Below are positions 11,528 through 51,403 of a DNA stretch of 64,000 bases, piece after piece (positions within the stretch are counted from its first letter, which is position 1; each line of letters starts with the position of its first letter). This stretch comes from an uncultured bacterium (GTDB lineage Bacteria; Babelota; Babeliae; Babelales; Vermiphilaceae), in contig OY968764.1 of NCBI GenBank assembly GCA_963695335.1, positions 800,001 through 864,000 of the forward strand. Direction: 5' to 3'. Under the pieces are notes generated by a model. That model did not search any database. It was not told the origin of the DNA and saw only the letters and a list, made by a program, of their open reading frames with translations. Made by a program: the position numbers and the translations under genes.

Positions 11528-13387
11528 TTATTTCAGATTTAGTTTTTTATTTTTGTCTGCAGTATTTTTGATCAATTGTCCTGTAATAGGATCAGCTTCT
11601 CCAAGATGTATTCCCTGTTTGTTATAAACTTCTAAATGGGCACCTTTTCCTCTGTGAAGAGTGTCTCGGTGATAGAATAAGTTGTCTTTTGTATATACTT
11701 GAGCACCTTTTACTGGGGCTATTTTTGTTTTTTTAAAATGAGTGCTATGCAAAACGATTTCTCGATCTAAAGGTATGCGGTTTTGTTGAATAAATTCTGG
11801 AATTATTTTTTCAATACTATTCTTTAAACCTGATGCCGTAGCTTGTCCCGATCGCTTTAACTTATTGGCATTTGTTGTGGCTTTAAACAGCAACCCTTCA
11901 GGGGTTGTAAGATATTCTTGTGGATTGAACAGAGAACTGTTTTTTGCAAAGGTAATACTTTTTTGTTTAATTGTGTTGCAGAATTTTCCTAATCCACCAA
12001 GTAATCTACTTTGCGCCATTAAGCTGACGCCAACCGCGGTACCATTTTTAACTGCATCGCGTAATGATATTTCTTTGTTATAGATTCTATCAATGACACT
12101 GTTTAATGGTTCAGCGTAATGATTCCATTTATCCTTTGCTTTATCAATATTGGTTATTGCAGTAAACCCAATATCTGCAACGTTATAAAGAACTTTGGAG
12201 AGTTGATATGCAAGTAACGGTTTGCTTGCAACCATAGAAACTGTTGCTTCAATAGGATTGTTCAGAATATCAGTGACTGCTGATTGTATGCCAATTGCAG
12301 CACCTTCAGCAACTGCTTGGCCGTAATCAAGCAGTGTCCAACAAAAATCGGCAATAGTAGTTGCTTTATCGGTAAGACCTTTATGGTTGCAATCAACCAT
12401 TGCCACAGTAAAATCGATTAATGCTTCTTGATGATCATACAAAACTGAAGTTGGTGATAGATGATCAATACGATTAAGTAAATCGAGTGATTCTTGATGA
12501 AGTGCATGTTGTAGTTTATTACCAGAGCATTGTGTAAAACATACTGCGTCATAGTTATATTTATGCAATAATTGCTTAACATTGTTATTGAGATTGTATG
12601 ATGTACTTGTGTAGTGCAGAAAATTATCAGCTCCTGACAAATTATGATATGCATCTAACCGTTTATTAATTGCGGCTGATAATGAAGGCGCATATTCTTG
12701 ATAAATAGATTGTAATTCTTTGTATTCAGATGTTTGTGTTTGAAATGTCTCAAGAGAATGATCGCGCAGAACTGGTTCATTACAAACTGGTTGCTCATGC
12801 TTAAGGTTCTTTAATTGATTGTATAAATAGTGGATGCGTTCTTGTAGGCCTGAGCAATAAGTACCTTTGATGGAGTACCAAATTTTTTGCAACCAATGAA
12901 GATTTTTTAATTCAGCATGTAGCTGTTGGATGGTGCATTTGTAACCTGAATATGTTTGTGTATATTTTACGAATTCATCAAACATATACAAACAGCGCTG
13001 ATTAAGTATTTGGCTTTCTGTGTATCCGTGTGACGAAAAATGTTTTTGAAAATCTTGAGCGTTATATTGTTTAAAATGCTGTTTATAAGAAGGTGATGTG
13101 TTGATATTGTTCCGTAATGGATCATGGGAAAAATCAGCATGTGATGTATGTCTATCATTTTTATAATTTGTTTGATGCCAGGAGTGAACTATTGTGGCAT
13201 GAGAATCTTTTGCAGTGATGGGGATAGATAATAGAGTGACAAAAAATGTATATGATAGATTCCTCTTTGCGCTCGTTCTGAACTTGTTGAAGAATATCTT
13301 CGAGCGCTCTAAGATACCCTTCAACAGGTTCAGGGTGAGCGCATAGATTGTAAAGATAGGTTTATATGGTGCATTCATTTTCATCAC
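11528..13387 (-). CDS. Polymorphic toxin with C-terminal colicin E3-like (cytotoxic rRNase) domain
   Basis: C-terminus YHRDTLH...HLEVYNKQGIHLGEADPITG resembles the ColE3 motif WDxxH.E.E.Y...G.HLG..DP.TG. Confidence 0.75.
   Translation of the reverse strand: MMKMNAPYKPIFTIYALTLNLLKGILERSKIFFNKFRTSAKRNLSYTFFVTLLSIPITAKDSHATIVHSWHQTNYKNDRHTSHADFSHDPLRNNINTSPSYKQHFKQYNAQDFQKHFSSHGYTESQILNQRCLYMFDEFVKYTQTYSGYKCTIQQLHAELKNLHWLQKIWYSIKGTYCSGLQERIHYLYNQLKNLKHEQPVCNEPVLRDHSLETFQTQTSEYKELQSIYQEYAPSLSAAINKRLDAYHNLSGADNFLHYTSTSYNLNNNVKQLLHKYNYDAVCFTQCSGNKLQHALHQESLDLLNRIDHLSPTSVLYDHQEALIDFTVAMVDCNHKGLTDKATTIADFCWTLLDYGQAVAEGAAIGIQSAVTDILNNPIEATVSMVASKPLLAYQLSKVLYNVADIGFTAITNIDKAKDKWNHYAEPLNSVIDRIYNKEISLRDAVKNGTAVGVSLMAQSRLLGGLGKFCNTIKQKSITFAKNSSLFNPQEYLTTPEGLLFKATTNANKLKRSGQATASGLKNSIEKIIPEFIQQNRIPLDREIVLHSTHFKKTKIAPVKGAQVYTKDNLFYHRDTLHRGKGAHLEVYNKQGIHLGEADPITGQLIKNTADKNKKLNLK
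13269..13342. repeat. REP-like family A, full doublet inside the toxin ORF 5' end
   Basis: GCGCTCGTTCTGAACTTGTTGAAG...CTTCAACAGGTTCAGGGTGAGCGC; translated as ALTLNLLKGILERSKIFFNKFRTSA. Confidence 0.85.
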
Positions 13388-14355
13388 TGTTTAAAATCAA
13401 TTGTAAATGGTTTTCCATATGTCCATTGCGGCATTTTCATTGCAAAAAGCGCTTGACGTACAGAGATATCAAACATCATAACACCTGAGTTTTTTATCAT
13501 TTTTATATTTTCTATTTTTCCCTTTGATGTAACAAAAAAAGATATTTCACACATACAATCTGGCGATACTCCAATGGGAGGTTTCCATGTTTGAACAATT
13601 TCTTTCTGCAGCTGTGCTTGTTTGCGCAGTGCTTCTACTTCGCGATAGTTATGAGAAATTTGCGCGTTGTCTGGGATAATTGCTGCGCCCTCTGGAGCTT
13701 TAGCGAAGGATTGCGGGATAATTGTCTGGTTAGTGTCTAAAGCTTGTGCAATAGGTGTAGGATTTATATATGCTGGTTTAACTATTTCTTTTTTTTCTTC
13801 AATCTTTGGTTCTAGTTTTTTCACATCTGTTTTAGCAGATGTGTCCGCCGAAGCTTTAGCGAAGGAGGATGGAGCTTGTTTTGGAAGTGCTGGTTTTACG
13901 GGTTCAGTTTTCTGCGCAATTTCCTGTTTTGGGATTTCTTGTTTAGCTGGTTCTATCTTTTTTATATCCGCCGTCTTGTCCGAAGAAGCCTTGGCGGAGT
14001 CGGAAGTTTTAACGGAGGAGGAGGGTACAGCAGCAACAGTTGTTGGTTTTTTGGTATCAGTTTTACCGGGTGTTGCTGGAGTTGCGGGTTTTGGCTTGTT
14101 CACAGTAGCTTTTTGAGGGACTACTTTTGTTGGAGTTGTTTTTATAGGCGTTGTAGTAATGCCAAGTGGTACAAAAAAAATGGGCGTAGAATAACCCAGT
14201 TTTTTGTTTATAGACAGTGACAGCATGTAACTGTTGTCACGATATACGCAAAACACCCAAAATAAAAAAACAAGATGTAAAAAAAGACAAGAGCCTAAAA
14301 GTTTAACCCAAAGCAGGTGTCTTTTGTGAATGTTTTTGAGTTGCAAGAGCCACAT
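13384..14355 (-). CDS. tolA: TolA/TonB-like energy transducer
   Basis: N-terminal S..LH TM anchor, Lys/Pro-rich linker, TonB_C-like domain (SG..MFD.SV..A), follows tolR. Confidence 0.75.
   Translation of the reverse strand: MWLLQLKNIHKRHLLWVKLLGSCLFLHLVFLFWVFCVYRDNSYMLSLSINKKLGYSTPIFFVPLGITTTPIKTTPTKVVPQKATVNKPKPATPATPGKTDTKKPTTVAAVPSSSVKTSDSAKASSDKTADIKKIEPAKQEIPKQEIAQKTEPVKPALPKQAPSSFAKASADTSAKTDVKKLEPKIEEKKEIVKPAYINPTPIAQALDTNQTIIPQSFAKAPEGAAIIPDNAQISHNYREVEALRKQAQLQKEIVQTWKPPIGVSPDCMCEISFFVTSKGKIENIKMIKNSGVMMFDISVRQALFAMKMPQWTYGKPFTIDFKQ
13687..13710. repeat. REP-like family B, in frame in tolA
   Basis: GCCCTCTGGAGCTTTAGCGAAGGA, translated SFAKAPEG. Confidence 0.75.
13844..13869. repeat. 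REP-like family B, in frame in tolA
   Basis: TCCGCCGAAGCTTTAGCGAAGGAGGA, translated SSFAKASAD. Confidence 0.85.
13967..14022. repeat. Nested family B within family B, in frame in tolA
   Basis: TCCGCCG[TCTTGTCCGAAGAAGCCTTGGCGGAGTCGG]AAGTTTTAACGGAGGAGGA, translated SSVKTSDSAKASSDKTAD. Confidence 0.75.
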
Positions 14356-15638: not shown

Positions 15639-16955
15639 ATGATAGATGTTTTTAAAAAGATAACTCTTCTGGTTGCTTTATTCGTTGGTGTTGTTAATGC
15701 AATGGATCATAGCATCTCTAGAAAAGAATCAAAATTTGATTTTTTGAAGTTGCATGAATTACAACCTTGGTATGAAACGTTGTCTCATGAACAAAAAGAT
15801 GCAATACAAAGTAATCTGAAAAAGCAGAATGAAAAAACTGTAGCACTTTTTAAAGTTACTACTGAGCTACCATTGGATGTACAAAAACTTGTTATTGCGC
15901 ATATGTTTGATGGTTATAGTTATACACGTTGTTATAAAGATGATCCTAATAAACATTTTGGTAAGTATGAAGGCGCTGTCAATAAATTTTATGCAAAGCC
16001 TATACGAGTTGTTTTTGATAATCAGAATAAGGCAGTAAAATTTCTTAATTTTTTGAAAGAAGATAGAGAGCGAGATTATAAATGTTTACATCCTCTTATA
16101 GATGATCCTAAAGCGCAACAGCATGTTATTTTTGAATTGTTAGAAGATATTCTTGTTTTTAATGCATGGCGGGGGAGTGAATGGCGCGGAATGGAAAGGG
16201 TTTGTTGTAAGAAAAGTGAATTGCAATCTATAGAGCGAGTTGTTAATACGTTCCCTACGATGATGCAACAAGTAAATTGGATAAATTTTAGATGTCATGA
16301 TTTGTCTACGCTTGATAATTTTAAAAAACGGTTTAGTAGAGAGCAATGGGTATTGTTGCCGCTTTGCTTACTTCCATTCGCTTCAAAATTGATTGCAAAA
16401 CCTTGGTATGAAGATTATGACTATATTGATCAAAATATTGTTGAGAAAAATAGTATAAAAAATTTTATTAATGCACATTTACAAGATAAATATAATGAAA
16501 CGGGTGATTTTGTCTGGTTATCTGGAATAAAACAACTCAAAAATCCTTTAGTAGAGACATGGAAGATTAATAGTGATGCTTTAGTTAAAAAAATAGCAAT
16601 ATATGCATCGGGAGGTTTTTTATTGGCTATGATTGGAGATAGCAACTTTTTCTCCAGAATGAAACAAATGAAACAAGATGGGCGTTTGTTGGAGAATGGG
16701 CAAGAAGTTGGAGTGTTTAGTATTATAAGTGGTGGGGTTGTCTTTGGAATAAAAACATTTTTTGAATATATTGCACCAAGAGTCATGGAACCATTATTGG
16801 AGCATCCTTTGTTGAGTATTGGTTGTATAACAGGTTGGTATGCTGTGAATGTTGCTCTTTATAATTTTATAAAAATGAGATCTTGGCGTGAAGATCATAT
16901 TGCAGGTAAGGATCTTTCTGCTTTATTACGACGTACTGATATTGAGATCGAATAG
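15639..16955 (+). CDS. Secreted/membrane protein, paralog family with F-box-like motif
   Basis: Signal peptide, ELPLDVQKLVIAHMF, C-terminal TMs, ends LLRRTDIEIE; homologous to 19615 and 20859. Confidence 0.65.
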   Translation: MIDVFKKITLLVALFVGVVNAMDHSISRKESKFDFLKLHELQPWYETLSHEQKDAIQSNLKKQNEKTVALFKVTTELPLDVQKLVIAHMFDGYSYTRCYKDDPNKHFGKYEGAVNKFYAKPIRVVFDNQNKAVKFLNFLKEDRERDYKCLHPLIDDPKAQQHVIFELLEDILVFNAWRGSEWRGMERVCCKKSELQSIERVVNTFPTMMQQVNWINFRCHDLSTLDNFKKRFSREQWVLLPLCLLPFASKLIAKPWYEDYDYIDQNIVEKNSIKNFINAHLQDKYNETGDFVWLSGIKQLKNPLVETWKINSDALVKKIAIYASGGFLLAMIGDSNFFSRMKQMKQDGRLLENGQEVGVFSIISGGVVFGIKTFFEYIAPRVMEPLLEHPLLSIGCITGWYAVNVALYNFIKMRSWREDHIAGKDLSALLRRTDIEIE

Positions 16956-17010
16956 TATTGCATTGCTATTTTCTGAAAAACTTTTTTATCGTAAGGAAAA
17001 AAGGGAAGAT

Positions 17011-17376
17011 ATGTACGTAAATCCAAAAGAGTTTTTTAATCAAAATATTTTTGATATCGCGATAGAAAATGCATTTTATAGAAAAGAAATTGTAACTGGT
17101 CCGCATAGCCAAGTTGTTATCATGTGCCTTGAACAAGGACAAGAAATTGGTGCAGAAGCGCACACGGTTGATCAGATATTTATTTTTGTGCAAGGGCGCG
17201 GTCAAGTGATTATTAATGATGTTGTTTCTGAGGTGAAAGAACATCATTTAGTTTTTGTGCCTGCGGGAACAACGCATAATATTAAAAATATGGGCGCTGA
17301 TTATCTTAAGTTGATTACTATTTACGCTCCGGCAGAAGATGCAGTTGGGACGCTTGAGCAGAAAAAGGGTGAGTAG
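17011..17376 (+). CDS. Cupin domain protein
   Basis: SQVVIMCL..GQEIG.E.H..DQ....QG.G...VPAGT.HN. Confidence 0.85.
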   Translation: MYVNPKEFFNQNIFDIAIENAFYRKEIVTGPHSQVVIMCLEQGQEIGAEAHTVDQIFIFVQGRGQVIINDVVSEVKEHHLVFVPAGTTHNIKNMGADYLKLITIYAPAEDAVGTLEQKKGE

Positions 17377-17379
17377 AAG

Positions 17380-17934
17380 TTGAAGAAGAAAATAACTGTA
17401 TTCACCATCGGGCATTCAACGCGATCAATTGATGAATTTGTAGAAATTCTTAAGCATTATCATATAACTGAATTGATCGATATTCGTACAATACCAAAAT
17501 CACGCCATAATCCGCAATTTAATGAGCATGAATTGGCGCACGCTTTACGTAATCATCATATTGGTTATCGTCATGAAAAACATTTGGGTGGGCTACGTCA
17601 TGCACATAAAGATTCAATTAATATGGCATGGGAAAATCTTTCCTTTCGTGGTTTTGCTGATTATATGCAGAGGGATGAATTTCATGAAGCTTTGCAAAAA
17701 CTTATAGAAATTGCGCATGAAAAAACAGTTGCAATTATGTGTGCTGAAGCGGTGCCATGGCGGTGTCACCGATCATTAATTGGCGATGCATTATTGGTGT
17801 ATGATATAGATGTTGAAGATATTTTTAGTGTAACATCAGTTAAGCCACACACGTTAACGCCATGGGCTGTTGTGCATGGTAAAAAGATAACATATCCTTT
17901 GCACTTCTACGCAAAAGTTACGAAAGGTGCTTGA
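17380..17934 (+). CDS. DUF488 family protein
   Basis: TIGHSTR, D.R..P.SR.NPQF, LGG.R and MCAE...WRCHR motifs. Confidence 0.9.
   Translation: MKKKITVFTIGHSTRSIDEFVEILKHYHITELIDIRTIPKSRHNPQFNEHELAHALRNHHIGYRHEKHLGGLRHAHKDSINMAWENLSFRGFADYMQRDEFHEALQKLIEIAHEKTVAIMCAEAVPWRCHRSLIGDALLVYDIDVEDIFSVTSVKPHTLTPWAVVHGKKITYPLHFYAKVTKGA
17901..17930. repeat. Degenerate family B element forming the DUF488 C-terminus
   Basis: GCACTTCTACGCAAAAGTTACGAAAGGTGC, translated HFYAKVTKGA. Confidence 0.55.
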
Positions 17935-17952
17935 GATAAAAAAGGGAGATGT

Positions 17953-18459
17953 ATGATCAAGTATCAAGTTGGTTATGGATTAAAAATTGTATTTGTTGGT
18001 ATTAATCCTCATCCAGGTTCATATAAGCGTGGCGTCCCATTTTCTAATAATAAAATGTTTTGGTATTTATTGAGTGATGCAGGACTTATTGATGAACCAC
18101 GAGAATTTTTAAAAGATGATAAAAAATTAAAACATTTTTATACGTATGAATTTAAAAAAAAATATCATTTTGGCATATTGAATTTAGTTGATAGACGAAC
18201 AAAGACAACCTCTGAGCTTAAAAAAAGTGAAGCGATACCTGGAAGAAAGCAGATATTAGCAGCAATACATAAGTATCAACCAGAAGTTGTCTGTTTTGTT
18301 GGTAAAATTACGTATCAATTGTTTAGTGATTTGAACGATGTTTCGTATGGTTGGCAGGCTGATATTGCATCATCGAAAATATATGTCATGCATGCACCTC
18401 ATCGTGGTGCTGCTCAGGAGCGCATTAAACAGCTTAAAGAGATTGCTAGAGCTTTATAG
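17953..18459 (+). CDS. mug: Mismatch-specific uracil-DNA glycosylase (Mug/TDG family)
   Basis: LKIVFVGINP, N.FW..L...G, G..NLV.R.T. Confidence 0.8.
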   Translation: MIKYQVGYGLKIVFVGINPHPGSYKRGVPFSNNKMFWYLLSDAGLIDEPREFLKDDKKLKHFYTYEFKKKYHFGILNLVDRRTKTTSELKKSEAIPGRKQILAAIHKYQPEVVCFVGKITYQLFSDLNDVSYGWQADIASSKIYVMHAPHRGAAQERIKQLKEIARAL

Positions 18460-19534
18460 TGTTGAAATTAATTTCGGTTGAATTGTTTATATCAGATAAA
18501 GCGGCAGTTAGAATACCTGTATTATCTTCATCAAGTTTTTTTAACCAAGCGGTTTTTGCATTAGAGTTGTTTGTTAATGTTTTTATACAGAGTAATTGAT
18601 AATCATTATGGCTTTTCATTTTCAGACTTTGATCATCATCAATATCTGCAGTGGTAACAATATCTGCATGGGCAAACCCGTTTTTTTTCAGAAAATCGTA
18701 ATAACTATCAATTTGATCGTGAATATATAAAGAAATGTGTGCCAGGGGAAATTGTTGTGTTAGCCATGATAAGAATTGTTTACATTGTACTTCTTTGAAA
18801 AGATAGTTCAAGAGGAATTGTTTATATAATTGCCCAGTTGTTAGTGCCCATATATATTGAATTCTTAAAACATCTTTTGTTTGATTGCGTGCATGTTTTA
18901 CGTATTCTTCTACGCGAGAACTTAGATCAAAAGATATTGGATCGGTTGTTATTCTTCGTGAATTGTTCAAGAAGTCTATCGCATTTACATAGCAGGTATT
19001 TCTGTCATCTATGCAATGAATAGTGATGTGTGCCTTTGGTAGCTCTATGAGTGTTTTTGTAGCAGTAATCAGAGTTTGGAATATGTCACCAGAGGCAAAG
19101 TCTGTATACGTAACAGAATTGGTTGGAGACGTTTGTAATTTGTTGATTAATAATTGACTTGCATATTTTTCAAAAGATGCTCTTGAGTGTGGTTTATAAA
19201 GTCTACTTAAGAGGCAATGATCATTATGTTTTGGATTATCATCTTCGGTGCATTCTCTAATGAAAAATAAAGGAAATTCCTGTCCATGTTTTTGAGCGAG
19301 TGTGCTGTAATCTTGTATGAATGCTGTGAGATCAAGGGAATAGTCTTTCTGGTTGAGAAGAATGTGAGCATTTGTGCAAAATTTATCAGATGCCGCTTTG
19401 TTTTTTATAAGATACTCTACGGGATTGGCAACTAATGCATCAGCCGTATAGGCTGTTTCCATGCTTATGAGGTTAAAACTGAGATTGAGTAGAAGAGTAA
19501 TAGATAGTATGAGATTTGTTTTTTGTAATATCAT
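18446..19534 (-). CDS. Hypothetical secreted protein
   Basis: 362 aa ORF with signal peptide. Confidence 0.6.
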   Translation of the reverse strand: MILQKTNLILSITLLLNLSFNLISMETAYTADALVANPVEYLIKNKAASDKFCTNAHILLNQKDYSLDLTAFIQDYSTLAQKHGQEFPLFFIRECTEDDNPKHNDHCLLSRLYKPHSRASFEKYASQLLINKLQTSPTNSVTYTDFASGDIFQTLITATKTLIELPKAHITIHCIDDRNTCYVNAIDFLNNSRRITTDPISFDLSSRVEEYVKHARNQTKDVLRIQYIWALTTGQLYKQFLLNYLFKEVQCKQFLSWLTQQFPLAHISLYIHDQIDSYYDFLKKNGFAHADIVTTADIDDDQSLKMKSHNDYQLLCIKTLTNNSNAKTAWLKKLDEDNTGILTAALSDINNSTEINFNTIKL

Positions 19535-19614
19535 AATGTTCTTTTTCTTTATAATAGTGTATTTTGGTCACCATTATAATGGCATATACGTAAGTAAGCA
19601 ATTGAGAATTTACA

Positions 19615-20856
19615 ATGAAAGTAGTAAGAGTGTCTGTTTTTCAAAAAATAATTATATTGTGTTGTATTTTGGTGCTAAGTTCTACTCATGCAATGGAGTG
19701 TGAACATGAGCTTATCTCTTTTAAATCATTATATGGTGCTCCTTTAATAAGCTTGCATAATGGCAAGCAATGGTTTGCAACATTATCACAAGAAAAACAG
19801 CAACGGATATGTGATCAAATAGAATCGCAAAAAAATAAAGGGCTTACTGCGTTATTGCATATGGTTGCATTACCACAAGATATACAAAAATCTATAGTAG
19901 CGCATTTATTTGAAAATGGTGAATGTCACAAAGCTGCAGATATATTTTGTAAAATTCCTCTCTGTGATGCGCTTAATCGATATCAAGTATCAAGAAAAAT
20001 AGTTCAAAATCCGGAAGCATTTAGTTTTTATAAGGAATCTTCTTTTCCATTGCACGTTATTTTTGAGTATGCAGATGATATCAAGGTATATCATAAGACC
20101 ATGGAGTATCATGACATTGGTTATTCCTCAAGAAAAGAGTTGGAAAGTTTGGAAAGAGTGATGCGAGTATTTAAAAACGCTGTTGGACGAACTAGATATT
20201 TGAAATATCAATTTTATAATAAGCACATTACTTTTGATCATATTAAAAAAGAGTTTTGTGATCAGATGTTGTTGTTGCCGATTGTTATATCGGCATATAT
20301 ATTTTTGATGTTTCCTTTAAGATGGCAGCGAGTTTGTAATCGGTGTAATATTGAGTATAATGCCGCAGCTGATGATTTGAATAAAGCAATCAGTGTTTTT
20401 AATGATAAAGTTGGATATCTGCGTCAAATAACGGGTGGTGATTATGAGTATTGTTCATATACTTACAAGCAAGAGGAAGAACCTATTATTTGGCATGGCG
20501 CGCACTATAAAAAGTGGTCTGGTGTTTTGGGGGTAACGTGGATAGCTTTTCTTTTGGGACTTAAGCATCGAGAGATAGATCGTGCAGTGGGCAAGTTTGG
20601 TGACAAAAATAGTTCTCAAAAAGTACGTTCTATTCTGACTACATTGTCTGGTATGTGTGGTGTGTATACAACAATGTCATGTATTGCGGCACAGTTTGAA
20701 GAAAATTCATTCTATGGGGTTGGTTGTATGACAAGTTTATATATGCTGCTTTGTTCTTGTTATAATGTCTACAAGGTGAAAAGTTTGCAAGAAGATGAGG
20801 TCTCAAGTTGGGATATTCAACCATTATTACAACGTATTAGTATTGAGATAATTTAA
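19615..20856 (+). CDS. Secreted/membrane paralog with F-box-like motif
   Basis: ELISFKSL.G.PLISL.NG, ALPQDIQKSIVAHLF, C-terminal TMs, ends LLQRISIEII. Confidence 0.65.
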   Translation: MKVVRVSVFQKIIILCCILVLSSTHAMECEHELISFKSLYGAPLISLHNGKQWFATLSQEKQQRICDQIESQKNKGLTALLHMVALPQDIQKSIVAHLFENGECHKAADIFCKIPLCDALNRYQVSRKIVQNPEAFSFYKESSFPLHVIFEYADDIKVYHKTMEYHDIGYSSRKELESLERVMRVFKNAVGRTRYLKYQFYNKHITFDHIKKEFCDQMLLLPIVISAYIFLMFPLRWQRVCNRCNIEYNAAADDLNKAISVFNDKVGYLRQITGGDYEYCSYTYKQEEEPIIWHGAHYKKWSGVLGVTWIAFLLGLKHREIDRAVGKFGDKNSSQKVRSILTTLSGMCGVYTTMSCIAAQFEENSFYGVGCMTSLYMLLCSCYNVYKVKSLQEDEVSSWDIQPLLQRISIEII

Positions 20857-20858
20857 TT

Positions 20859-22211: not shown

Positions 22212-23936
22212 CTATCCAAACGTAAATACATATGCATCGATACCTTTTGAACATTGCAGTGTTAGTGTATGTCTGCCATATTTTTCTTTTACATCAATAA
22301 TTTCATACATTTGTGGTTGATGAATTTTGATTGAAGAAACTGGTTTTCCGTCAAGGAAAACCATAATTTGTTGTGGTGTATCGGATTGCGCAACAAGATA
22401 GACATGTGTTGCGATGAAATTTAAGATGATTTCACTGGTATCTTGTTCGCTATGAATATGATCAGGTGCAATGGTCCAGGTGCCTGTTAGGCCAACTTGA
22501 TCATTGCCAAGAGGTTGTGTTGGATATGATTGTTTGCCACGTTCAGAGCCAAGGTAAGTTTCTTGAGTGATGTGTTGTCCTTCGACAGCTTCCGACTTCG
22601 CCAAGGCTTCGTCGGACACGGCAGGACGAGCGGGGGATGGGGTAGGTTTTTTCTCGATAGAAGGCATGTTGAGCAATGCACGGATTGCATTTTCCATTTC
22701 TACGTAATCACCTTCACCAAAATGTGTTTTGACAATGTTGCCATCTTGATTAATCAGATAATGTGCAGGCCAATAATGATTATTGTATGCTTGCCATGTT
22801 TGATAATTATTATCAAGTGCCACAGGATAGGTGATATTAAATCTTTTAACAGCATCTTCTACATGTTGTTTATTTTTTTCAAAAGCAAATTCTGGTGTAT
22901 GAATACCGATGATTTCTAAACCTTTATCTTTGTATTCTTTGTACCATTCAGTAACATGTGGTAATGTGCGAACGCAATTGATACATGAATATGTCCAAAA
23001 ATCGAGAAGTACAACTTTTCCCTTGAGTTGTGCAAGCGTGAGTGGTTTTGAATTAATCCAATCAGTGATGCCAACAAGTTCAGGAGCTTGACGTTCGCTT
23101 TCAGAGCGAACGTAATTTGATTTTTTGAGCATAGTAAGTTCCTTTTGTAGTTTGCTACTGTTTTCGATAGTAATGGAGGGGAATAGGTGCGCAACTTTTT
23201 CTTGGATGAATGTATCAACGTGGAATATCATCGCGAGAGCACTTACGATAATAATGATTCCAAAAATTTGTCTGATGGTATGAGTGTAAGGTGTAAGGGC
23301 AGTCGTTGATTGTATAATTTTTGTGCCACCAAAAGAGATTAATAACATTGGTATTGCTGCGCCGAGGCTATAAGAAAGTGTCATAAGTATGGTGGTAAGC
23401 GTAATTCCTTTTGTTGCAGCAATGACGGTGATGGTTGCCAAAATGGGCCCTGCACAGGGAGTCCAGATAAGACCAAGAGCAATTCCTACAATAAGGCCAG
23501 TAAAAAATTCTACGTACCCCTTGTTTTGCGGTTCAATGTTGGCAGGGGTTTGGCTTGAAGCATTTATTGGTGAGCTTGACGATGTATCGGGAACAATTTT
23601 CTTTTCGATTGAACTGCCAAGTTGCGCTATAAAACTGGTCATTATAGTAAACTTATTTTCTAACCATGGAATGATCATGGTAAGTCCAAAGAAAATTACA
23701 ATCCCGAGTGCAATAGCGCGGAAGATATCAGGAGATATGCCAGTTGCTTCTACAATTGCAGTCATTGCAAGGGTAAAGAATGAGAAGCTTGTAACAAAGC
23801 CGGCAATAATTCCAAATGGTTTAGAATGTGTTCCGTTGCTGCTTGTTGCAAGCAAAAGGGGCGCAATAGAGAGAATGCATGGTGAAAGTATGGTAATAAA
23901 ACCGGCTATAAATGCGAAGATGAGAAGTATGATCAT
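22212..23936 (-). CDS. dipZ: DipZ-type cytochrome c biogenesis protein (CcdA/DsbD TM domain + thioredoxin)
   Basis: SPCIL and WTPCAGPIL TM cysteines; DFWTYSCINC thioredoxin motif; ETYLG; ends AYVFTFG. Confidence 0.88.
   Translation of the reverse strand: MIILLIFAFIAGFITILSPCILSIAPLLLATSSNGTHSKPFGIIAGFVTSFSFFTLAMTAIVEATGISPDIFRAIALGIVIFFGLTMIIPWLENKFTIMTSFIAQLGSSIEKKIVPDTSSSSPINASSQTPANIEPQNKGYVEFFTGLIVGIALGLIWTPCAGPILATITVIAATKGITLTTILMTLSYSLGAAIPMLLISFGGTKIIQSTTALTPYTHTIRQIFGIIIIVSALAMIFHVDTFIQEKVAHLFPSITIENSSKLQKELTMLKKSNYVRSESERQAPELVGITDWINSKPLTLAQLKGKVVLLDFWTYSCINCVRTLPHVTEWYKEYKDKGLEIIGIHTPEFAFEKNKQHVEDAVKRFNITYPVALDNNYQTWQAYNNHYWPAHYLINQDGNIVKTHFGEGDYVEMENAIRALLNMPSIEKKPTPSPARPAVSDEALAKSEAVEGQHITQETYLGSERGKQSYPTQPLGNDQVGLTGTWTIAPDHIHSEQDTSEIILNFIATHVYLVAQSDTPQQIMVFLDGKPVSSIKIHQPQMYEIIDVKEKYGRHTLTLQCSKGIDAYVFTFG
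22578..22632. repeat. Family B nested in family A, in frame in dipZ
   Basis: TCCTTCGACAGCT[TCCGACTTCGCCAAGGCTTCGTCGGACACGG]CAGGACGAGCG, translated ARPAVSDEALAKSEAVEG. Confidence 0.85.
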
Positions 23937-28318: not shown

Positions 28319-28393
28319 GCGCTCGTCCTGAGCTTGTCGAAGGATTTCTTCGAGCGCTCGAAAGATATCCTTCGACAAGCTCAGGACGAGCGC
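28319..28393. repeat. REP-like family A, near-perfect 75-bp palindrome (intergenic reference copy)
   Basis: GCGCTCGTCCTGAGCTTGTCGAAGGAT...TCGAGCGCTCGA...ATCCTTCGACAAGCTCAGGACGAGCGC. Confidence 0.92.
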
Positions 28394-31308: not shown

Positions 31309-32590
31309 TATCAAGCCCGTACATTCCGCCCGCAATATTTGTGTTAAATGTTCTTTTACCCGCTATTTCGAGATTATAAAATACGCCAATTCGGTTGCCA
31401 ACCTTGTTTCCTTCACGTGCAAAATCATATTCAAGAATAAAGTTAAATGTATGCATATTCCATCCAGCAAGCGTTGGATCGCTGTTGATGATAGCACAAT
31501 TAAATTGTGTTGAGTCGCATAGCCTGCCCGTCGAAGCCTTGGCGAAGTCGGGGGTTAAGTTGGATTTTTGTTGGGAAGCAAAAGAATATGCTGAAGTAAA
31601 TGAAAATCCATGACCAAAGTGATCTGCTTTAAGATAAAGTCCAGTGTGAACCAATGGTCCCCTGTGGACTGAAACATTGCCAGATGCAAGTTTGATGATA
31701 CCGCTCTGGTCTGCATCTGTTTTCAGGCGCATTGTTTTGTCTTTGTTGAGGAAAAACAGTGAGTTTACATATCCACCAAACGTAATCCATTCATAGTGTC
31801 CTATAGAGAGCATAGCGCAGAGGGGGAATGCCCAGTGCCCATTATAGCCTGTTGGCAATGAAAATGGGTTGAGTTCGTTTTTTTGTTTGCCGGTAGGGCT
31901 GAGCAAGCCTGCCATCAAGGTAACATCAACAAAATCGATTGTGGTTGTTTCTTGGTAGTTATGTGTCCAGCCCAGGTAAGAAGAAAAGTCCCCAACACCA
32001 ATTTCTGTTGTGCCGGATGTGCGGATGCCATAATTGTTGAGCAATGGATTAAAGTTTTGTAACACCGCCTGCCATTCAGGTGTATTTTTATTGGGGAATA
32101 TATCATCATTTGGTGAAAGATCGGTAAATGTTATGTTGTTGATTTTTAATTTTCTGACGGGCAAATAGAAGAAAAGCAGCAACCCGTGAGAAAGATTTTG
32201 AGTAAATGAAAGGTTTGATTCGATGATATGGAATTTTCCATCGATTGAAACTGTTGCAAAATCAGTTCTTTTAGGCAATGCTGCAAGATTGTTTAAAAGT
32301 GCGTTATATTGATTGTCTGGGTTAGTGAATATAGTATTAACGTTAAGTTCTTGGATATTCTGTAAGCCATAAATATCGAGTAAAGGAACAATACTGTTGT
32401 TGGCGGAGCGGCCTTGGCTGGTTGAACCTCCCTCTACGTTTGCTTCAAATGTTGAGAGGTAATCATGTTCTAGGCGTGGCTCTGGGAACATGTTGGTTGC
32501 ACGATAAAAATGAGGATTGTCGATAGCGCTCAGATAAACTGAGCTCATGCCTGCAAGGCAGGCAATAAGTAGATAGTTTTTATATTTCAT
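31292..32590 (-). CDS. Putative outer-membrane beta-barrel protein
   Basis: Signal peptide, alternating beta-strand pattern, G.GD..SYLGW and PTG...P.G..GHW motifs shared with the 60479 gene. Confidence 0.5.
   Translation of the reverse strand: MKYKNYLLIACLAGMSSVYLSAIDNPHFYRATNMFPEPRLEHDYLSTFEANVEGGSTSQGRSANNSIVPLLDIYGLQNIQELNVNTIFTNPDNQYNALLNNLAALPKRTDFATVSIDGKFHIIESNLSFTQNLSHGLLLFFYLPVRKLKINNITFTDLSPNDDIFPNKNTPEWQAVLQNFNPLLNNYGIRTSGTTEIGVGDFSSYLGWTHNYQETTTIDFVDVTLMAGLLSPTGKQKNELNPFSLPTGYNGHWAFPLCAMLSIGHYEWITFGGYVNSLFFLNKDKTMRLKTDADQSGIIKLASGNVSVHRGPLVHTGLYLKADHFGHGFSFTSAYSFASQQKSNLTPDFAKASTGRLCDSTQFNCAIINSDPTLAGWNMHTFNFILEYDFAREGNKVGNRIGVFYNLEIAGKRTFNTNIAGGMYGLDISLSM
31527..31552. repeat. 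Family B element in frame in the putative beta-barrel gene
   Basis: CCCGTCGAAGCCTTGGCGAAGTCGGG, translated PDFAKASTG. Confidence 0.85.
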
Positions 32591-35594: not shown

Positions 35595-35631
35595 AATAAT
35601 TCCTTTTTAAGCTATGTTTACTTGTGGTTTT

Positions 35632-40268: not shown

Positions 40269-40388
40269 TCATTTGAGCTATTCTTAGTTTTTAAAAAATT
40301 ATAAAAATGGATTGTGGTAATAATTGATTACTGCAGCCCATTTTTTTATAGTAATAAACCATAATTATGTAAAGTGAAAGGTTGTTGT

Positions 40389-41204: not shown

Positions 41205-41351
41205 ATTTGATATGTTGTTTGTCATATTTTTGCGTTAAATCTTAAACCATTAGATAAGAATTAAATTTATTTATTTAATACGCCTGTTATAATAGCAATT
41301 ATAAAAATATTATTGGTGGTTTTTTAAATATATTTACATAAAGGTGTTTCT

Positions 41352-42170
41352 GTGAAAATAAAATTAATGATTATTGCTTTGGTAGCTGTTTCAGGGTTGC
41401 ATGGTTCTGAAAGAGGTCAGATGGTGTCTGCTAAGGATGAGAAAGCATTAACAAAAAGTTTTGAGGATTGTGTTAATAGTAGGTCTTATGCTTTTAATAA
41501 TTGCAAACGACCAGTAGTTGTTTGTTGTTTGAAAGAGACGAACAATAAAGAAACAATACATTGTCTGACTCAAAAAGTTATTGATAAAGAGTGCCAAAGC
41601 ATAGATGGAAACTTTGCTCGTATAACAAAGGTTCATTGGTATCCTGCTACAGAGAAAGTGACAAAAATTAAGAATGTAGAAAGTGATCAGTGGATAGATC
41701 AAAATGATACTAAAAGAGTAATGTTATGCACTGTTTATAATATTGGTAGTAACACTGAAAAAGAAGATATTTTAAACGTTAATCAATTACTTGTTAGCCA
41801 TCCAAGAATACCTATGTTAGTTATAGTAACGAGTTCTGATTTAAAATCTATTTGTGAAGCAGTAGAAGCAGATATGACAAGTTTTAATGTTGATTTTTCT
41901 GCCGCGATTCTTCAATCAGCCAAAGAACTAGCTATTAGTAAACTTGATAATATTGTAAATAGTGGTGACTCAATTGATGAATTATTGAAAAAATTAGAAG
42001 AGTTAAGTTGTCAGAGTAAAGTTTTTCAATCTAAGAATGATGAAAAAAAGCTAGTCGATTCTTTAAGTGCTTTCTATTCTTTCACCAAATTTTTCACCAA
42101 TCACTGGGGAAAATTAGCAGGAGTTTCTTTGATAGGTATACTTGCTTGCTATTATAAAGTTACTCATTAA
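41352..42170 (+). CDS. Secreted protein with C-terminal membrane anchor
   Basis: Signal peptide and C-terminal FFTNHWGKLAGVSLIGILA shared with the next gene. Confidence 0.65.
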   Translation: MKIKLMIIALVAVSGLHGSERGQMVSAKDEKALTKSFEDCVNSRSYAFNNCKRPVVVCCLKETNNKETIHCLTQKVIDKECQSIDGNFARITKVHWYPATEKVTKIKNVESDQWIDQNDTKRVMLCTVYNIGSNTEKEDILNVNQLLVSHPRIPMLVIVTSSDLKSICEAVEADMTSFNVDFSAAILQSAKELAISKLDNIVNSGDSIDELLKKLEELSCQSKVFQSKNDEKKLVDSLSAFYSFTKFFTNHWGKLAGVSLIGILACYYKVTH

Positions 42171-42210
42171 AAAATAACATTATTGATGGGTTGCTAATAA
42201 AGGTGTTGCT

Positions 42211-42924
42211 GTGAAAATAAAGGTAATGATTATTGCTTTGATGGCTGTTTCAAGATTGCATGGAATGGAAAGTTCTCATGGATATACATTAAAGTCAGCT
42301 TTGAATCACTGCATAGAGAGCGGACAAGGATCAATGGTAGCTTGTTTTTATAGCGATGAAGATAAGAAGCGTTCTCCTGATACTAAGATTGAAGATTTGG
42401 TTGCAGGTTTATGGAAGTCTGATATTGGAACTAAGTTTTCTGAATCATCAACTATTCAGTTACATTCTGGTATAGAAAATGGTGTTTTGTTGGCGAAATT
42501 TTTGAGTAAGGATCGTACAGAGTGGATAGACTCTAGAGACTATAAGTATGATGGTGATAATAGAGTATCAATAGAGTGTAATTTTTGTGATATTGTTGAT
42601 GATAAATCTGCGGAACATTTTATTTTTGATATTCTTAGAAAGCGTCGTGCTTTTAACATCCAAACTCCCATTTTAATTTATTTTAATACTTCAAGAGTAA
42701 TTGATGAATTTGACATTGTGAGTATATTGAGCAAATGTGATGTGCAATTTGGTCGAGCTCCAGAAAATATTGTGAGGCTATGCAATTCACAGGGGCAAGA
42801 ATTAAATAATAAAGATTTTCAATCAAATAATAGTATTGTCTGTTTTTTCACCAATCACTGGGGAAAATTAGCAGGGGTTTCTTTGATAGGTATACTTGCT
42901 TTTTACTATAAGTTTGTTCGTTAA
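42211..42924 (+). CDS. Secreted protein with C-terminal membrane anchor (paralog)
   Basis: Same termini as 41352; 58-bp block with 1 mismatch (42090-42147 vs 42844-42901). Confidence 0.65.
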   Translation: MKIKVMIIALMAVSRLHGMESSHGYTLKSALNHCIESGQGSMVACFYSDEDKKRSPDTKIEDLVAGLWKSDIGTKFSESSTIQLHSGIENGVLLAKFLSKDRTEWIDSRDYKYDGDNRVSIECNFCDIVDDKSAEHFIFDILRKRRAFNIQTPILIYFNTSRVIDEFDIVSILSKCDVQFGRAPENIVRLCNSQGQELNNKDFQSNNSIVCFFTNHWGKLAGVSLIGILAFYYKFVR

Positions 42925-47340: not shown

Positions 47341-47417
47341 GTTCGTATGTTTCGACAAGCTCAACACGAACGGTTTTATATGATCCGTTCGCACTGAGCC
47401 TGTCGAAGTGAGCGAAC
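47341..47417. repeat. REP-like family A doublet (intergenic)
   Basis: GTTCGTATGTTTCGACAAGCTCAACACGAACGG...CCGTTCGCACTGAGCCTGTCGAAGTGAGCGAAC. Confidence 0.85.
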
Positions 47418-47431
47418 GTAAAACAAAAACT

Positions 47432-48712
47432 ATGAACAACAAACATTTCATTCTCCACCTAACCCTTATAGAAAATATTGGCCCTGCAATAATTCAAAAA
47501 ATCATAAGATCTGACATTTCGGTGTCAGATCTTTATTCATTCTCACAAGCAGATTGGATAAACAATTTTGGATTTTCTGAGGGTACAGCAGAAAAATTGG
47601 CTGATGGCCTTGCCAATACCAAAATGCTTCAAGCAGAACTTACTCTTATTGAACAACACGATATTCAATGGGTCACATTTGAAGATGAATCTTATCCGCA
47701 ACTGTTAAAAAATATTTACTTACCTCCGGCAGTTTTATATTGGCAGGGGGCTTCATTATGCGCTCATCCTGAACTTGTTGAAGAATATCCTCGAGCGCCT
47801 GAAAAAAAATTGGCAATTGTTGGTGCGCGTAAGGCAGATAATTACGGTCAGCATGCTATTGATCTGCTAGTTCCAGATCTTGTTGCAGCGGATTATACAA
47901 TTGTGAGTGGCGGTGCGCGTGGCATTGATACTATGGCGCATCAAGCAACGCTTAATCATAATGGTAAAACTATTGCTGTACTTGGCTCTGGTCTGTTACG
48001 TCCGTATCCTTATCAAAACACAAAATTATTTAAATTAATTGCTGAAAATGGTGGGACTGTGGTGAGTTCTTTTCCATTAACAATGGAAGGGTTACCAGGA
48101 AATTTCCCTGCACGCAATCGCATTATTACAGGATTGTCACACGGGTGTTTGGTTGTGCAGGCAGCGCAAAAAAGTGGCGCATTAATTTCTGCGCATTATG
48201 CAATGGAGCAAGGCAGAGAAGTGTTTGCAATTCCTGGGCCTCTTGGCAGTGAGTTGAGTGCTGGGTGCAATACATTAATTCAACAAGGCGCAAAACTTGT
48301 TACGTGCACTGCTGATATTCTGCAGGAGTTTGGTGATCGGGTGATACTTCCTGATAAGAAGGTAGTAGAAGAAAAAGCGAAACAGATGTCTTTAGAGTCT
48401 TTCCAGTGCGCTCGCCCTGAACCTGTTGAAGGGTATCTTGGAGCGCTCAAAGACAGTCTTCAACAAGTTCAGACCGAGCGCGAGAGAGCGCAAAGATCAG
48501 ATAAACTTCGTGATACACATGTTGATAAATACTCAAACTATTCCCCGCAACAAAAAAGTATTATCATCGCATGTAAAAAACCAATATCATTTGATGATAT
48601 TATTGCCAGCACACAATTGCCACTAGAGATTCTGCAATCAGAACTGTTTAACTTGCAACTTGATGGTGTTATATCACAAGATTTTACTGGGATGTGGGTA
48701 GTGCATTCATGA
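47432..48712 (+). CDS. dprA: DNA-processing protein DprA with two in-frame palindromic inserts
   Basis: YP..L..I..PP..LY..G, AIVGAR, IVSGGARGID..AH, FPARNRII.GLS, SGALISA..A.EQGREVF. Confidence 0.93.
   Translation: MNNKHFILHLTLIENIGPAIIQKIIRSDISVSDLYSFSQADWINNFGFSEGTAEKLADGLANTKMLQAELTLIEQHDIQWVTFEDESYPQLLKNIYLPPAVLYWQGASLCAHPELVEEYPRAPEKKLAIVGARKADNYGQHAIDLLVPDLVAADYTIVSGGARGIDTMAHQATLNHNGKTIAVLGSGLLRPYPYQNTKLFKLIAENGGTVVSSFPLTMEGLPGNFPARNRIITGLSHGCLVVQAAQKSGALISAHYAMEQGREVFAIPGPLGSELSAGCNTLIQQGAKLVTCTADILQEFGDRVILPDKKVVEEKAKQMSLESFQCARPEPVEGYLGALKDSLQQVQTERERAQRSDKLRDTHVDKYSNYSPQQKSIIIACKKPISFDDIIASTQLPLEILQSELFNLQLDGVISQDFTGMWVVHS
47760..47798. repeat. Family A half element (39 bp) in frame in dprA
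   Basis: GCGCTCATCCTGAACTTGTTGAAGAATATCCTCGAGCGC, translated CAHPELVEEYPRA. Confidence 0.85.
48408..48481. repeat. Family A full doublet in frame in dprA
   Basis: GCGCTCGCCCTGAACCTGTTGAAGGG...CTTCAACAAGTTCAGACCGAGCGC, translated CARPEPVEGYLGALKDSLQQVQTER. Confidence 0.85.
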
Positions 48713-49662
48713 AAAAATTAGTAATAGCTTTATTCTTGGGTGGTGCAATGGGCACCATTTTTTTTTCGGGATATCAATCACATGATATAAAAATGCAACA
48801 AACCTACTTCGCTAAAGCTACGAAGGTCAAGAAAACTTTAATAATTGTTGCAACAACAAGTATGCTTGCAGATGCAGCGCGTAATATTGTTGGAGATAAT
48901 ATCACGGTATACGGTTTGATGGGCGCCGGTGTTGATCCGCATTTGTATCGCGCCAGAGAAAGTGATGTGCACAAGTTAGCAGCGGCAGACATGGTGATTT
49001 ATAATGGATTGCATTTGGAAGGTAAAATGGGGCAGGTGTTGCAAGGCATGCAACGTTTTACTAACGTGTGTGCAGTAGCAAATACACTTAAAAAAGAGCA
49101 GTTGCGCTCATCTGAATTTGATGATCTGTATGATCCGCATATTTGGTTTGATGTTCTTTTGTGGATAGAGCTTGTGCGTTATATGCAGCAACAGATTATT
49201 GCGCTTGATCCTGAGCATGCAGATGTATATCAAAAAAATGGCGATGATTATATTGATGAACTTGAACAACTGCATGAATATGTGCAGCGACGAGTGAACG
49301 AGCTTGATGTGGATAAAAGAATTTTAATCACCGCGCATGATGCGTTTGGTTATTTTGGTGCGCGATATGGTTTTGAAGTTATTGGTCTGCAAGGTTTGAG
49401 TACCGATTGTGATATTAGCACAAAAGATATTCAGCAGCTTGCAGATTTTATTGTTGAAAAACAAATTTCTACTATGTTTGTTGAATCATCAATTCCACAA
49501 CGTGCTTTGGTTGCAGCGCAAAATGCTGTGTGCGCACGTGGATGGAATATTGCAATTGGCCCTGAATTGTATTCTGATGCGCTTGGTGATGAACAGAGTG
49601 GCGCGTCATCATATATTGCAATGGTGAAATATAATGTTAATGCGATTGTTGATTCTCTTTAA
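48709..49662 (+). CDS. Mn/Zn ABC transporter substrate-binding protein (TroA-like)
   Basis: GVDPHLY, YNGLHLEG, DPHIWFD, TAHDAFGYF, LYSDALG. Confidence 0.92.
   Translation: MKKLVIALFLGGAMGTIFFSGYQSHDIKMQQTYFAKATKVKKTLIIVATTSMLADAARNIVGDNITVYGLMGAGVDPHLYRARESDVHKLAAADMVIYNGLHLEGKMGQVLQGMQRFTNVCAVANTLKKEQLRSSEFDDLYDPHIWFDVLLWIELVRYMQQQIIALDPEHADVYQKNGDDYIDELEQLHEYVQRRVNELDVDKRILITAHDAFGYFGARYGFEVIGLQGLSTDCDISTKDIQQLADFIVEKQISTMFVESSIPQRALVAAQNAVCARGWNIAIGPELYSDALGDEQSGASSYIAMVKYNVNAIVDSL
48803..48828. repeat. Family B element in frame in the troA-like gene
   Basis: CCTACTTCGCTAAAGCTACGAAGGTC, translated TYFAKATKV. Confidence 0.85.
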
Positions 49663-50505: not shown

Positions 50506-51327
50506 ATGAAAAATATATCAAAAATACCAGCATTAGATGTTTCTCATCTTACTGTTGAATACAACCCTACTTCGCTAAAGCTACGAAGGGCAAGTCCCAA
50601 TTTAATTCTAGCCAATTTTTCAGTCACTATTCCACAAGGTGTGATGTGTGGCATTATTGGGCCCAATGGTGCAGGTAAAACAACGCTCATGAAAGCGTTG
50701 CTCCAATTAATACCCATTTCTGCAGGCAATGTGCAAATTTTGGGAAATTCTTTTAAAAATGTGCGCAATAAAATTGCATACATCCCTCAACGCAGTTCTG
50801 TTGATTGGGATTTTCCGATCACCGTGTTTGATATGGTATTAATGGGTTGTTATGGAAGATTAGGCTGGTTTAAGCGTCCAACAAATGCTGATCGTATTAA
50901 AGTATATGAGTCTCTTGCTGCCGTAGGCTTGTGCGAATATGCAGATAAATCAATTAGTGTACTATCTGGCGGGCAACAACAACGAGCGTTTTTAGCACGT
51001 GCGCTCATGCAAGATGCGCATATTTATTTTTTGGATGAACCATTCGCTGGTGTGGATATTGAAGCTGAAAAAATTATTATTACTCTTTTTAAGAAATTAC
51101 GTGATGAAGGCAAAACAGTTATTGTTGTTCATCACGATCTTTTTACGGCATCAACATATTTTGATTATATTTTATTACTGAATAAAACGTGTATTGCTTC
51201 TGGGCCTACTGAGCAAGTGTTAAATGCATTCAATCTTGAATGCACATATGGCCGCATACCCTTCGATACATTTTTTGAAGACAAAAAACACTCAGGGCGA
51301 GCGGAAAGAGAATTCTTAGAGCAATAA
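50506..51327 (+). CDS. Mn/Zn ABC transporter ATPase (TroB-like)
   Basis: GPNGAGKTT, YIPQR..VDWDFP, LSGGQQQR, LDEPF, VHHDL. Confidence 0.92.
   Translation: MKNISKIPALDVSHLTVEYNPTSLKLRRASPNLILANFSVTIPQGVMCGIIGPNGAGKTTLMKALLQLIPISAGNVQILGNSFKNVRNKIAYIPQRSSVDWDFPITVFDMVLMGCYGRLGWFKRPTNADRIKVYESLAAVGLCEYADKSISVLSGGQQQRAFLARALMQDAHIYFLDEPFAGVDIEAEKIIITLFKKLRDEGKTVIVVHHDLFTASTYFDYILLLNKTCIASGPTEQVLNAFNLECTYGRIPFDTFFEDKKHSGRAEREFLEQ
50565..50594. repeat. Family B element (30 bp) in frame in the troB-like gene
   Basis: CCCTACTTCGCTAAAGCTACGAAGGGCAAG, translated PTSLKLRRAS (different frame from the troA copy). Confidence 0.85.
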
Positions 51328-51403
51328 AAGAAGAGTTAATCCCCGCTCGCCCTGAGTGTTCTTCGTAGCTTTAGCGAAGAAGAATGTATCGAAGGGTATG
51401 CGG
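51252..51403. repeat. Family A variant doublet with family B nested in the right arm; left arm encodes the TroB C-terminus
   Basis: CCGCATACCCTTCGATACA...CACTCAGGGCGAGCGG / CCGCTCGCCCTGAGTG..[CTTCGTAGCTTTAGCGAAG]..TGTATCGAAGGGTATGCGG. Confidence 0.85.

Follow-up and report, generated by a model that had tools for sequence, protein, structure and literature searches.

How do short palindromic repeats come to lie inside protein-coding genes? The question has been open since the Rickettsia palindromic elements (RPEs) were reported, and it is raised again by a 64,000-nucleotide (nt) stretch, hereafter the window, from the genome of an uncultured Vermiphilaceae bacterium (assembly GCA_963695335.1), in which two hairpin repeat families, A and B, occur both between genes and in frame within them. 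The window corresponds to C1:800001-864000 of the source genome (G000), a single contig (C1) of 1,366,684 bases with 35.7% G+C; G001, G002, G005 and so on denote relative genomes, L numbers denote individual small-nuclease loci, and positions without a prefix are those of the window. Host dependence has been described for the phylum, Dependentiae or TM6 (PMC4776705). We consider it probable that A and B descend, as non-autonomous forms, from the hairpin ends of two types of cassette encoding small GIY-YIG nucleases, and that these cassettes would be what mobilises them.

The repeat families were obtained by de novo clustering, followed by genome-trained profiles with codon-shuffled controls; the controls gave at most 2 matches per genome per profile, with scores far lower than those of real copies. 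Scanning G000 in this way, as the initial annotation had proposed, yielded 404 merged elements amounting to 21 kb, from which the 361 strong copies (profile score of at least 25) were kept and 43 weaker ones discarded. Clustering revealed structure beyond two families, namely A1 (dimer), A2 (an arm with a variable inner hairpin), A3, B, C (a longer family nesting inside A arms) and D. The window alone holds 17 matches to the family A core against 0.89 expected and 5 to the family B core against 0.01 expected. Placed on 1275 gene models, which come from a simple hexamer model, cover 86.6% of the genome and tend to start late, the strong copies are intergenic in 241 cases, internal to genes in 54, near the N-terminus in 8 and near the C-terminus in 2, while 22 overlap a start or stop and 34 precede the modelled start within an open frame. 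Thus, 64 copies lie inside gene models, 52 genes in all. The coding share differs by family, with 47 of 105 copies for B and 15 of 216 for the A types, so that family B is the main gene invader.

All copies that the initial annotation had placed in tolA, the toxin gene, the DUF488 gene, dipZ, the 31292 gene, dprA, troA and troB were found in open frames, the one in DUF488 being weak. We compared 23 sites in 17 genes, chosen by us and weighted to conserved genes, with orthologues. At 16 sites the repeat adds length relative to orthologues lacking it, and at two (pgk and pfkB) native codons are replaced with length nearly unchanged. The family B copy in troA, located after the signal/anchor region (48802..48832, minus strand), adds 12 aa, is absent from 10/10 orthologues and faces a 36-nt gap in G005; the copy near the troB N-terminus (50565..50595, minus strand) adds 10 aa, is absent from 6/6 orthologues and corresponds to a 30-nt gap in G005, G008 and G002. 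Family B likewise adds 10 aa to the gene at 31292-32590(-) (31522..31552, plus strand; absent from 5/5 orthologues, 30-nt gap in G005 and G002), and a decayed copy adds 11 aa at site 3 of the tolA-like gene (13683..13713, plus strand; absent from 5/5 orthologues, 33-nt gap in G005). The dipZ copy (22578..22634, minus strand; +17 aa, absent from 7/7 orthologues) proved to be a B unit nested in an A arm, which refines what had been reported there.

Both dprA sites add length: an A1 arm in a DprA loop (site 1; 47760..47803, plus strand) makes the gene 27 nt longer than in G005 and G002, and an A1 dimer in the linker before the winged helix (site 2; 48408..48481) falls between Pfam domains 74-292 and 384-417, opposite a 96-nt gap in G002. 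Another A1 dimer (13269..13342) occupies the N-terminal, signal-peptide-like region of the toxin-like open reading frame (ORF) 11528-13387(-), where 8/9 homologues lack about 30 residues, starting at the aligned Met; the G002 toxin gene shares a dimer there, and each arm of that dimer contains a nested insertion mirroring the other. In the DUF488 gene a decayed B-like unit (17901..17926, minus strand; score 16 only) forms a C-terminal extension of about 10 aa, and 3/3 orthologues end earlier. The remaining length-adding sites are in pheT (+28 aa), polA, ftsK, ftsZ, ddl (site 1) and a 1178-aa protein with two sites. The five sites without a clear call are the mutL linker, ddl site 2, the troB tail and tolA sites 1 and 2. 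The troB C-terminal tail is read from an A2 arm (51254..51305, minus strand), with an A2 copy at the same place in G005. At tolA site 2 (family B, score 41; 13839..13869, plus strand) the low-complexity linker blurs the boundaries, and G002 has its own B copies nearby; at site 1, a double B (scores 34 and 17; 13974..14023, plus strand), no clean indel is discernible.

The alignments back the claim that the repeats are inserted in frame at loops, linkers and termini of genes that remain intact, and with it the parallel drawn to RPEs. The counter-case named in the initial annotation, that repeat-free relatives carry the same peptides, finds no footing: in G001, which has 1 exact A core and 0 B cores, the inserted peptide is absent wherever it was aligned. 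The same loops bear different repeat types across genomes in DprA, TolA, PfkB and FtsZ; DprA loop site 1, for example, holds a full dimer in G008 and other repeat forms in G003 and G004. The A dimer at ddl site 1 is common to G000, G005 and G008, and with a synonymous difference to G005 near 0.5 per site some inserts are, judging from this comparison, evidently old. The description of the system as active was therefore not borne out for G000. The starts at 47408, 51384 and 56502 fall within repeats or next to them and are probably false, which makes the three copies concerned probably non-coding; in two of these cases the gene model picks later starts. An A3 arm pair in the gyrA-dprA spacer (47344..47414) contains a probably false GTG start, orthologous DprA starts aligning at 47429; an A2 arm with a B-like inner loop in the spacer between troB and the permease gene (51342..51401, plus strand) is probably non-coding; and a family B copy with a 5-nt loop (56515..56547, plus strand) is probably upstream of the true start at 56583.

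Pfam was searched with 45 proteins, comprising 34 insert-bearing genes outside the window (of 43 with internal copies genome-wide) and 11 window ORFs. The names returned include PolA, PheT, Rho, FtsZ, FtsK, PGK, MutL, a Ddl-containing protein, PfkB, Maf, DprA, DipZ and ZnuA/TroA, among others; 16 of the 45 matched no Pfam family. All 8 insert-bearing genes tested are single copy, and single-copy carriers include pheT, polA, ftsZ, ftsK and pgk. In 12/12 insert-bearing genes dN/dS against the sister genome G005, by rough counting, was 0.08-0.21, which indicates that such genes are intact and under purifying selection. In such genes, whose function is established, essential domains are encoded downstream of the inserts, so the inserted peptides would have to be translated. 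An AlphaFold model of DprA computed without an alignment reached a mean pLDDT of 44.7 and was left unused; loop placement thus rests on indel position, Pfam bounds and flank composition, hydrophobic residues making up 25% of the flanks and 36% of the proteome as a whole. Most likely, the peptides are tolerated as passengers.

The family B unit consists of a 5-6-nt head followed by a hairpin with covarying stem pairs and is 30-31 nt long. Its length is best seen in 9 copies nested at one A-arm site, which form exact empty/filled pairs differing by 30 or 31 nt, and in tandem copies in G046 with a period of 31 nt. No target-site duplication was seen at any of these 9 nested insertions or at clean coding junctions. 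The 30-nt head type makes up 28/47 coding and 16/48 non-coding B units, the 31-nt type 4/47 and 12/48, respectively; in three coding composites with a 31-nt B, read by eye, the A arm is one base short. Copies had been described as readable in different frames, which is correct, although the frames are used unevenly, with one dominating B. The frame giving FAKAS-like peptides, rich in Ser, Ala, Lys and Glu and linker-like, is used by 31/47 coding B units (p about 1e-12), whereas two other frames, oftener stop-free among intergenic copies (43/44 and 41/44), are used only 3 times each. Target codon phase was rejected as the cause under three target models (p still at most 2e-8); these p-values are overstated because related copies and kin genomes are not independent. 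Selection on the peptide is the simplest reading of the bias. Being often 30 nt long and having one linker-like frame would make B the main gene invader. There is no replication-strand bias for A, and B leans toward the leading-strand sequence (57/89); no strand preference relative to transcription was seen for intergenic single copies. By nearest-neighbour DNA folding the single-arm hairpins are weak (-2 to -8 kcal/mol) and the dimer reaches -40; sheared G.A pairs may stabilise the single-arm hairpins.

The initial annotation saw no mobilising enzyme in the window and suggested searching for a nuclease flanked by the repeats. The window does contain a transposase gene (9933-10682) within an IS5-family element (9891-10698; DDE_Tnp_1, DUF4096), 1 of 6 near-identical genome copies, with ends that are neither A nor B. 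A nuclease near repeats does exist elsewhere in the genome, only not of the RAYT/TnpA type that had been named: besides UvrC, G000 encodes three stand-alone small GIY-YIG proteins (PF01541 over cut-off, frames of 80-95 aa). One gene lies between A2 arms, another comes after B copies and the third after tRNA-Arg and a B-type pair. The three genes, located at C1:565521-565808 (minus strand), 895128-895367 (plus strand) and 205100-205342 (plus strand), are intact, and their products have Tyr/Tyr/Glu at the positions of SsnA Y6, Y17 and E64.

We built a tree of 46 such proteins, 26 being the best locus per genome and 20 chosen by us from same-genus genomes. Clade I (n=24), about 95 aa and UPF0213-like, has an A arm on at least one side in 20/24 cases and an inverted pair on both sides in 17/24; its node has weak support (85/84), with long branches joining close to the root. 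Inside clade I the A1, A2 and A3 arms go with separate subclades, as far as flanks read by eye allow. When the ends of the A1 cassettes L073 and L275 are joined at their shared central 8-mer, the result has the layout of the window dimer, so that the dimer reads as an empty cassette. The 75-bp palindrome reported at 28319 is indeed present (28319..28393, intergenic), and both of its halves and its central 8-mer match those cassette ends; a span of 74 nt is found in 13/25 A1-type dimers of the genome. The 74-75-bp palindrome therefore looks like a gene-less cassette, as judged from sequence layout. Two almost identical cassette genes lie at different loci in G010, and G008 and G009 each contain several cassettes, again at separate loci. 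The same nested insertion in both arms was found in one of the two G010 cassettes (L267), in L276 and in the G002 toxin-gene dimer, mirroring that shows arm-to-arm copying. The closest solved relatives of the A-linked nuclease are PDB 1zg2 (E 6e-15) and 1ywl (2.5e-13), UPF0213 structures deposited as hypothetical proteins; we found no paper joining UPF0213 with GIY-YIG in the library searched. No specific NCBIfam family was found for 4 small GIY-YIG proteins, the ESM Atlas returned generic GIY-YIG clusters only, and no relative of clade I was found among viral contigs, where clade II had 5 weak matches. Three loci, L085 (G020), L083 (G029) and L070 (G038), belong to clade I with arm variants that score poorly on the G000 profiles, which suggests that there are more enzyme-repeat pairs.

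Clade II (n=18), about 80 aa long, has B upstream in 10/18 cases by a fixed-loop profile and A in 0/18. Its genes carry a B pair upstream and are positioned just behind the 3' ends of tRNA or tmRNA genes. This arrangement extends to metagenomes: taking the best 80 of 189 clade II relatives, 68 had at least 200 nt upstream (64 distinct proteins, 30-64% G+C), and B-type architecture was present upstream in 48/68, against 0.6% of shuffles, with tRNA or tmRNA within 350 nt in 44/68 and an A arm in 0/68. In Rfam searches of 5 cassette loci only tRNA and tmRNA scored over threshold. In G000 itself, 16/35 tRNA/tmRNA genes are directly followed by a B hairpin whose stem starts with their own CCA (for example at C1:1153551, 1108093 and 445161); this CCA-stem pattern, written after the flanks had been inspected, matches 25 of 36,796 CCA sites. 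B hairpins that pair with CCA could affect tRNA 3' processing. About five more G000 tRNA/tmRNA genes appear to bear nested or altered B versions. The four members of clade III have neither A nor B, and one (L081) matches the SRM pattern published for the Ssn system. These loci, L077, L078, L081 and L088 (in G018, G035, G033 and G039), come from other Dependentiae, have CGTC/SRM-type arms and are probably true Ssn members.

Across the order, exact B cores were detected in 43/61 and exact A cores in 22/61 genomes. In the 16 order-level genomes searched both ways, B cores occur in 9/9 with a small GIY-YIG gene and in 1/7 without; the link is loose, because some of those nucleases lie outside clade II. 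G001 and G013, where the only GIY-YIG match is of UvrC length, have 0-1 exact A or B cores.

If the repeats do derive from the nuclease cassettes, each nuclease would bind its cognate hairpin in single-stranded DNA and cut near the short 5' head, by analogy with SsnA, which binds its hairpin only as single-stranded DNA and cuts a few bases 5' (PMC11893778). Repair copying from another hairpin would then write a new copy into the cut site, usually without target duplication; it could sometimes replace native codons and could also copy one cassette arm onto the other. Insertions in genes would survive in loops or linkers, provided that the frame stays open and that the net change in length is divisible by three. 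A bolder proposal, which we advance only tentatively, is that the two GIY-YIG clades, both uncharacterised, may be the transposases of minimal single-strand mobile elements that form a class of their own. One would be bracketed by A and the other would home to tRNA 3' ends with CCA as the hairpin base; their 30-nt gene-less ends would act as a codon-sized mutagen, repeatedly writing a linker-like decapeptide into essential proteins.

Several observations weigh against a cassette origin. SsnA has been shown only to cut and to restrict transformation, its mobility being put forward as a hypothesis (PMC11893778). No A1- or A3-subclade nuclease gene was found in G000, though those arms are the commonest, and its A2 cassette, which shares its locus with that of G002 and whose arms are not identical, looks stationary. 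In most clade II genes B is confined to one side, a downstream copy being present in 2/68 of the metagenome set. G017 (8 A and 3 B cores) and G034 (2 B cores) have repeats, and no small GIY-YIG gene was found in either. Junctions follow no single rule, given the two replacements and five unclear sites among the 23. As for present activity, contigs from three DNA runs, whose sparse cover tells little either way, gave no insertion-spanning contig with an empty allele.

Part of this evidence would fit an alternative that we regard as unlikely, though worth taking seriously, in which the nucleases, domesticated for single-strand restriction or repair, recognise the hairpins without spreading them, and host recombination, template switching and gene conversion between hairpins multiply the repeats. 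In Neisseria, transforming DNA is what SsnA acts on (PMC11893778), dprA is present in the host, the G000 A2 cassette sits at a shared locus, arm mirroring needs fold-back repair alone, and the pgk and pfkB replacements resemble recombination. Yet domestication has to contend with near-identical cassette genes at two G010 loci and the several dispersed cassettes of G008 and G009; relatives without small nucleases are mostly repeat-poor, and the 5' head of B is sharp, with B recurring at one A-arm site. A better-known mobiliser would be a HUH Y1 transposase of the IS200/RAYT type or an IS5 enzyme, with the GIY-YIG genes as passengers between two repeat copies. G000 does have an IS200-type tnpA in three identical copies, along with six IS5-type elements, and RAYTs are linked to GTAG-type repetitive extragenic palindromic (REP) sequences (PMC3733652). 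We find this very improbable, as the tnpA copies bear their own hairpins, neither A nor B, the IS5-type ends also differ, Y1_Tnp was detected in 10/41 genomes and not in the repeat-bearing G005, G007, G008 and G009, and the arm subtype tracks the GIY-YIG subclade.

We likewise give little credence to a host role that would preserve the repeats (RNA stability, tRNA 3' processing or nucleoid binding) or to an adaptive value of the peptides. The hairpins that pair with CCA at 16 of the 35 tRNA/tmRNA genes and the A dimer common to the ddl-containing gene of G000, G005 and G008 would suit such a function, but sites vary between sister genomes, different repeat types occupy the same loop, intergenic single copies are indifferent to the direction of transcription, and G001 manages without repeats. 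That the coding copies are artefacts, i.e., chance codon patterns, miscalled starts or pseudogenes, is the least credible explanation of all. In its favour, the 34 strong copies upstream of a modelled start are probably non-coding and about ten weak 'internal' matches look like chance; it is countered by the near-empty codon-shuffled controls, by inserts within or between Pfam domains of single-copy genes and by the sharing of some inserts among independent assemblies.

Compared with known systems, A and B resemble RPEs in their effect on proteins and the Ssn/NTS system in the layout of gene and repeat. As with RPEs, palindromes occur in frame within housekeeping genes that are unrelated to one another, in a bacterium with a small genome and a probable dependence on a host (PMC10969869, PMC3733652), about half of one family's copies are coding, and in-frame insertions absent from orthologues were found, as the 16 length-adding sites attest. 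By description, RPE-1 type elements are about 150 bp long with a conserved peptide, whereas here B is 30-31 nt and A 30-75 nt, the units are modular and nested, and the phylum is another. With Ssn/NTS the repeats share a single-domain GIY-YIG gene of 80-100 aa located next to, or between, hairpin repeats that are oriented and number in the hundreds (PMC11893778), repeat variants that track nuclease variants, and the aligned Tyr/Tyr/Glu; the nuclease gene is flanked by its cognate repeat on both sides in 17/24 clade I cases and mostly upstream only in clade II. They differ in that the published SRM pattern has 0 matches in G000, so that A and B do not fit it, and in that clades I and II stand apart from the SRM-type clade in our tree, which was built without SsnA. 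Only 2% of NTS lie in genes (PMC11893778), against 47/105 for B, and a term search of the main text of that paper returned no mention of tRNA.

CGTC- and GTAG-type REPs and REPINs are similar as 20-40-nt hairpins with a short 5' tag (TGTC/CGTC-like) and dimers often with unlike arms, and they too have intragenic copies in DNA-metabolism genes and tRNA synthetases (PMC3733652). Compared by description and by the SRM pattern, CGTC REPs have 8-9-bp stems, 4-5-nt loops (PMC3733652) and a CCA tail, whereas A and B have 4-6-bp stems, GA-rich internal loops and a variable inner hairpin. Neither a Y1 HUH gene flanked by the repeats, the hallmark of REP/RAYT (REPIN) systems, nor the fixed-length target-site duplication of classical miniature inverted-repeat transposable elements was found. 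Having failed the SRM, CGTC-stem, RAYT and target-duplication tests, A and B were assigned to none of those families. Both intragenic REPs and Ssn have been published. In a library lacking most subscription papers we found none on the association of these two nuclease clades with A and B hairpins or on the targeting of tRNA ends, nor on these repeats in Dependentiae, though the supplements of PMC11893778 and PMC3733652 may list such repeats; a term search of PMC4776705 returned no 'palindrom'.

CGTC-type REPs have been described as lacking a dedicated transposase (PMC3733652). Our results point to small GIY-YIG cassettes as a candidate engine for RPE-like 'selfish DNA inside proteins', and specific enzyme-substrate pairs can now be named and tested with short oligonucleotides and 80-95-aa proteins. 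Should the nucleases prove to be transposases, they would supply the long-missing mobiliser for RPE-like coding palindromes together with two new site-specific single-stranded DNA nuclease specificities; clade II nucleases, if sequence-specific on single-stranded DNA, would extend the Ssn toolbox. The genome also amounts to a natural insertion-tolerance scan, with one 10-codon unit present in dozens of copies in many proteins and a measurable frame preference, and the pairing of B hairpins with tRNA CCA raises a testable question of tRNA maturation.

Other repeats of the window include an intergenic single family A arm at 5274..5303 (minus strand, profile score 41), an A3 arm cluster upstream of gltX (57284..57423) and an intergenic A1 arm with half of the dimer centre (60225..60266, minus strand). 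Family C, a 70-nt multi-hairpin unit often replacing part of an A arm, is represented by an intergenic element at 5873..5941 and by further copies at 58936-59001 and 62068-62108. The spacer between gltX and the fabD-like gene contains A3 arms with nested family C (58862..59001), and in G006 the same spacer appears, from flanks read by eye, to be filled by a complete A1 nuclease cassette (L068). The family D repeat at 60423..60463 (plus strand) is one of 7 genome copies, all intergenic.

Some further features were recorded along the way. The toxin-like ORF has a conserved N-terminal region and several paralogues in relatives, is polymorphic-toxin-like, shows a weak match to Pfam Cytotoxic (colicin-E3-type) at its C-terminus and follows tolQ/tolR/tolA-like genes. 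In dipZ (22212-23936), residues ~117-140 form a second insert of about 23 aa that is found only in G000 and matches no repeat profile, and later in the gene there is a 14-aa deletion, both relative to 7 orthologues. G000 also has a second insertion sequence of about 980 bp. A 126-bp periodic repeat recovered by k-mer clustering at C1:72677-75170 was rejected as a CRISPR array and falls within tandem WD40-like repeat proteins. Low-complexity Gly/Arg-rich ORFs at 34542-35822 explain the top direct-repeat families of the window, and tandem paralogous genes that have upstream and terminal DNA in common form several runs, at 38026-42924, 53187-55034 and 15639-22202.

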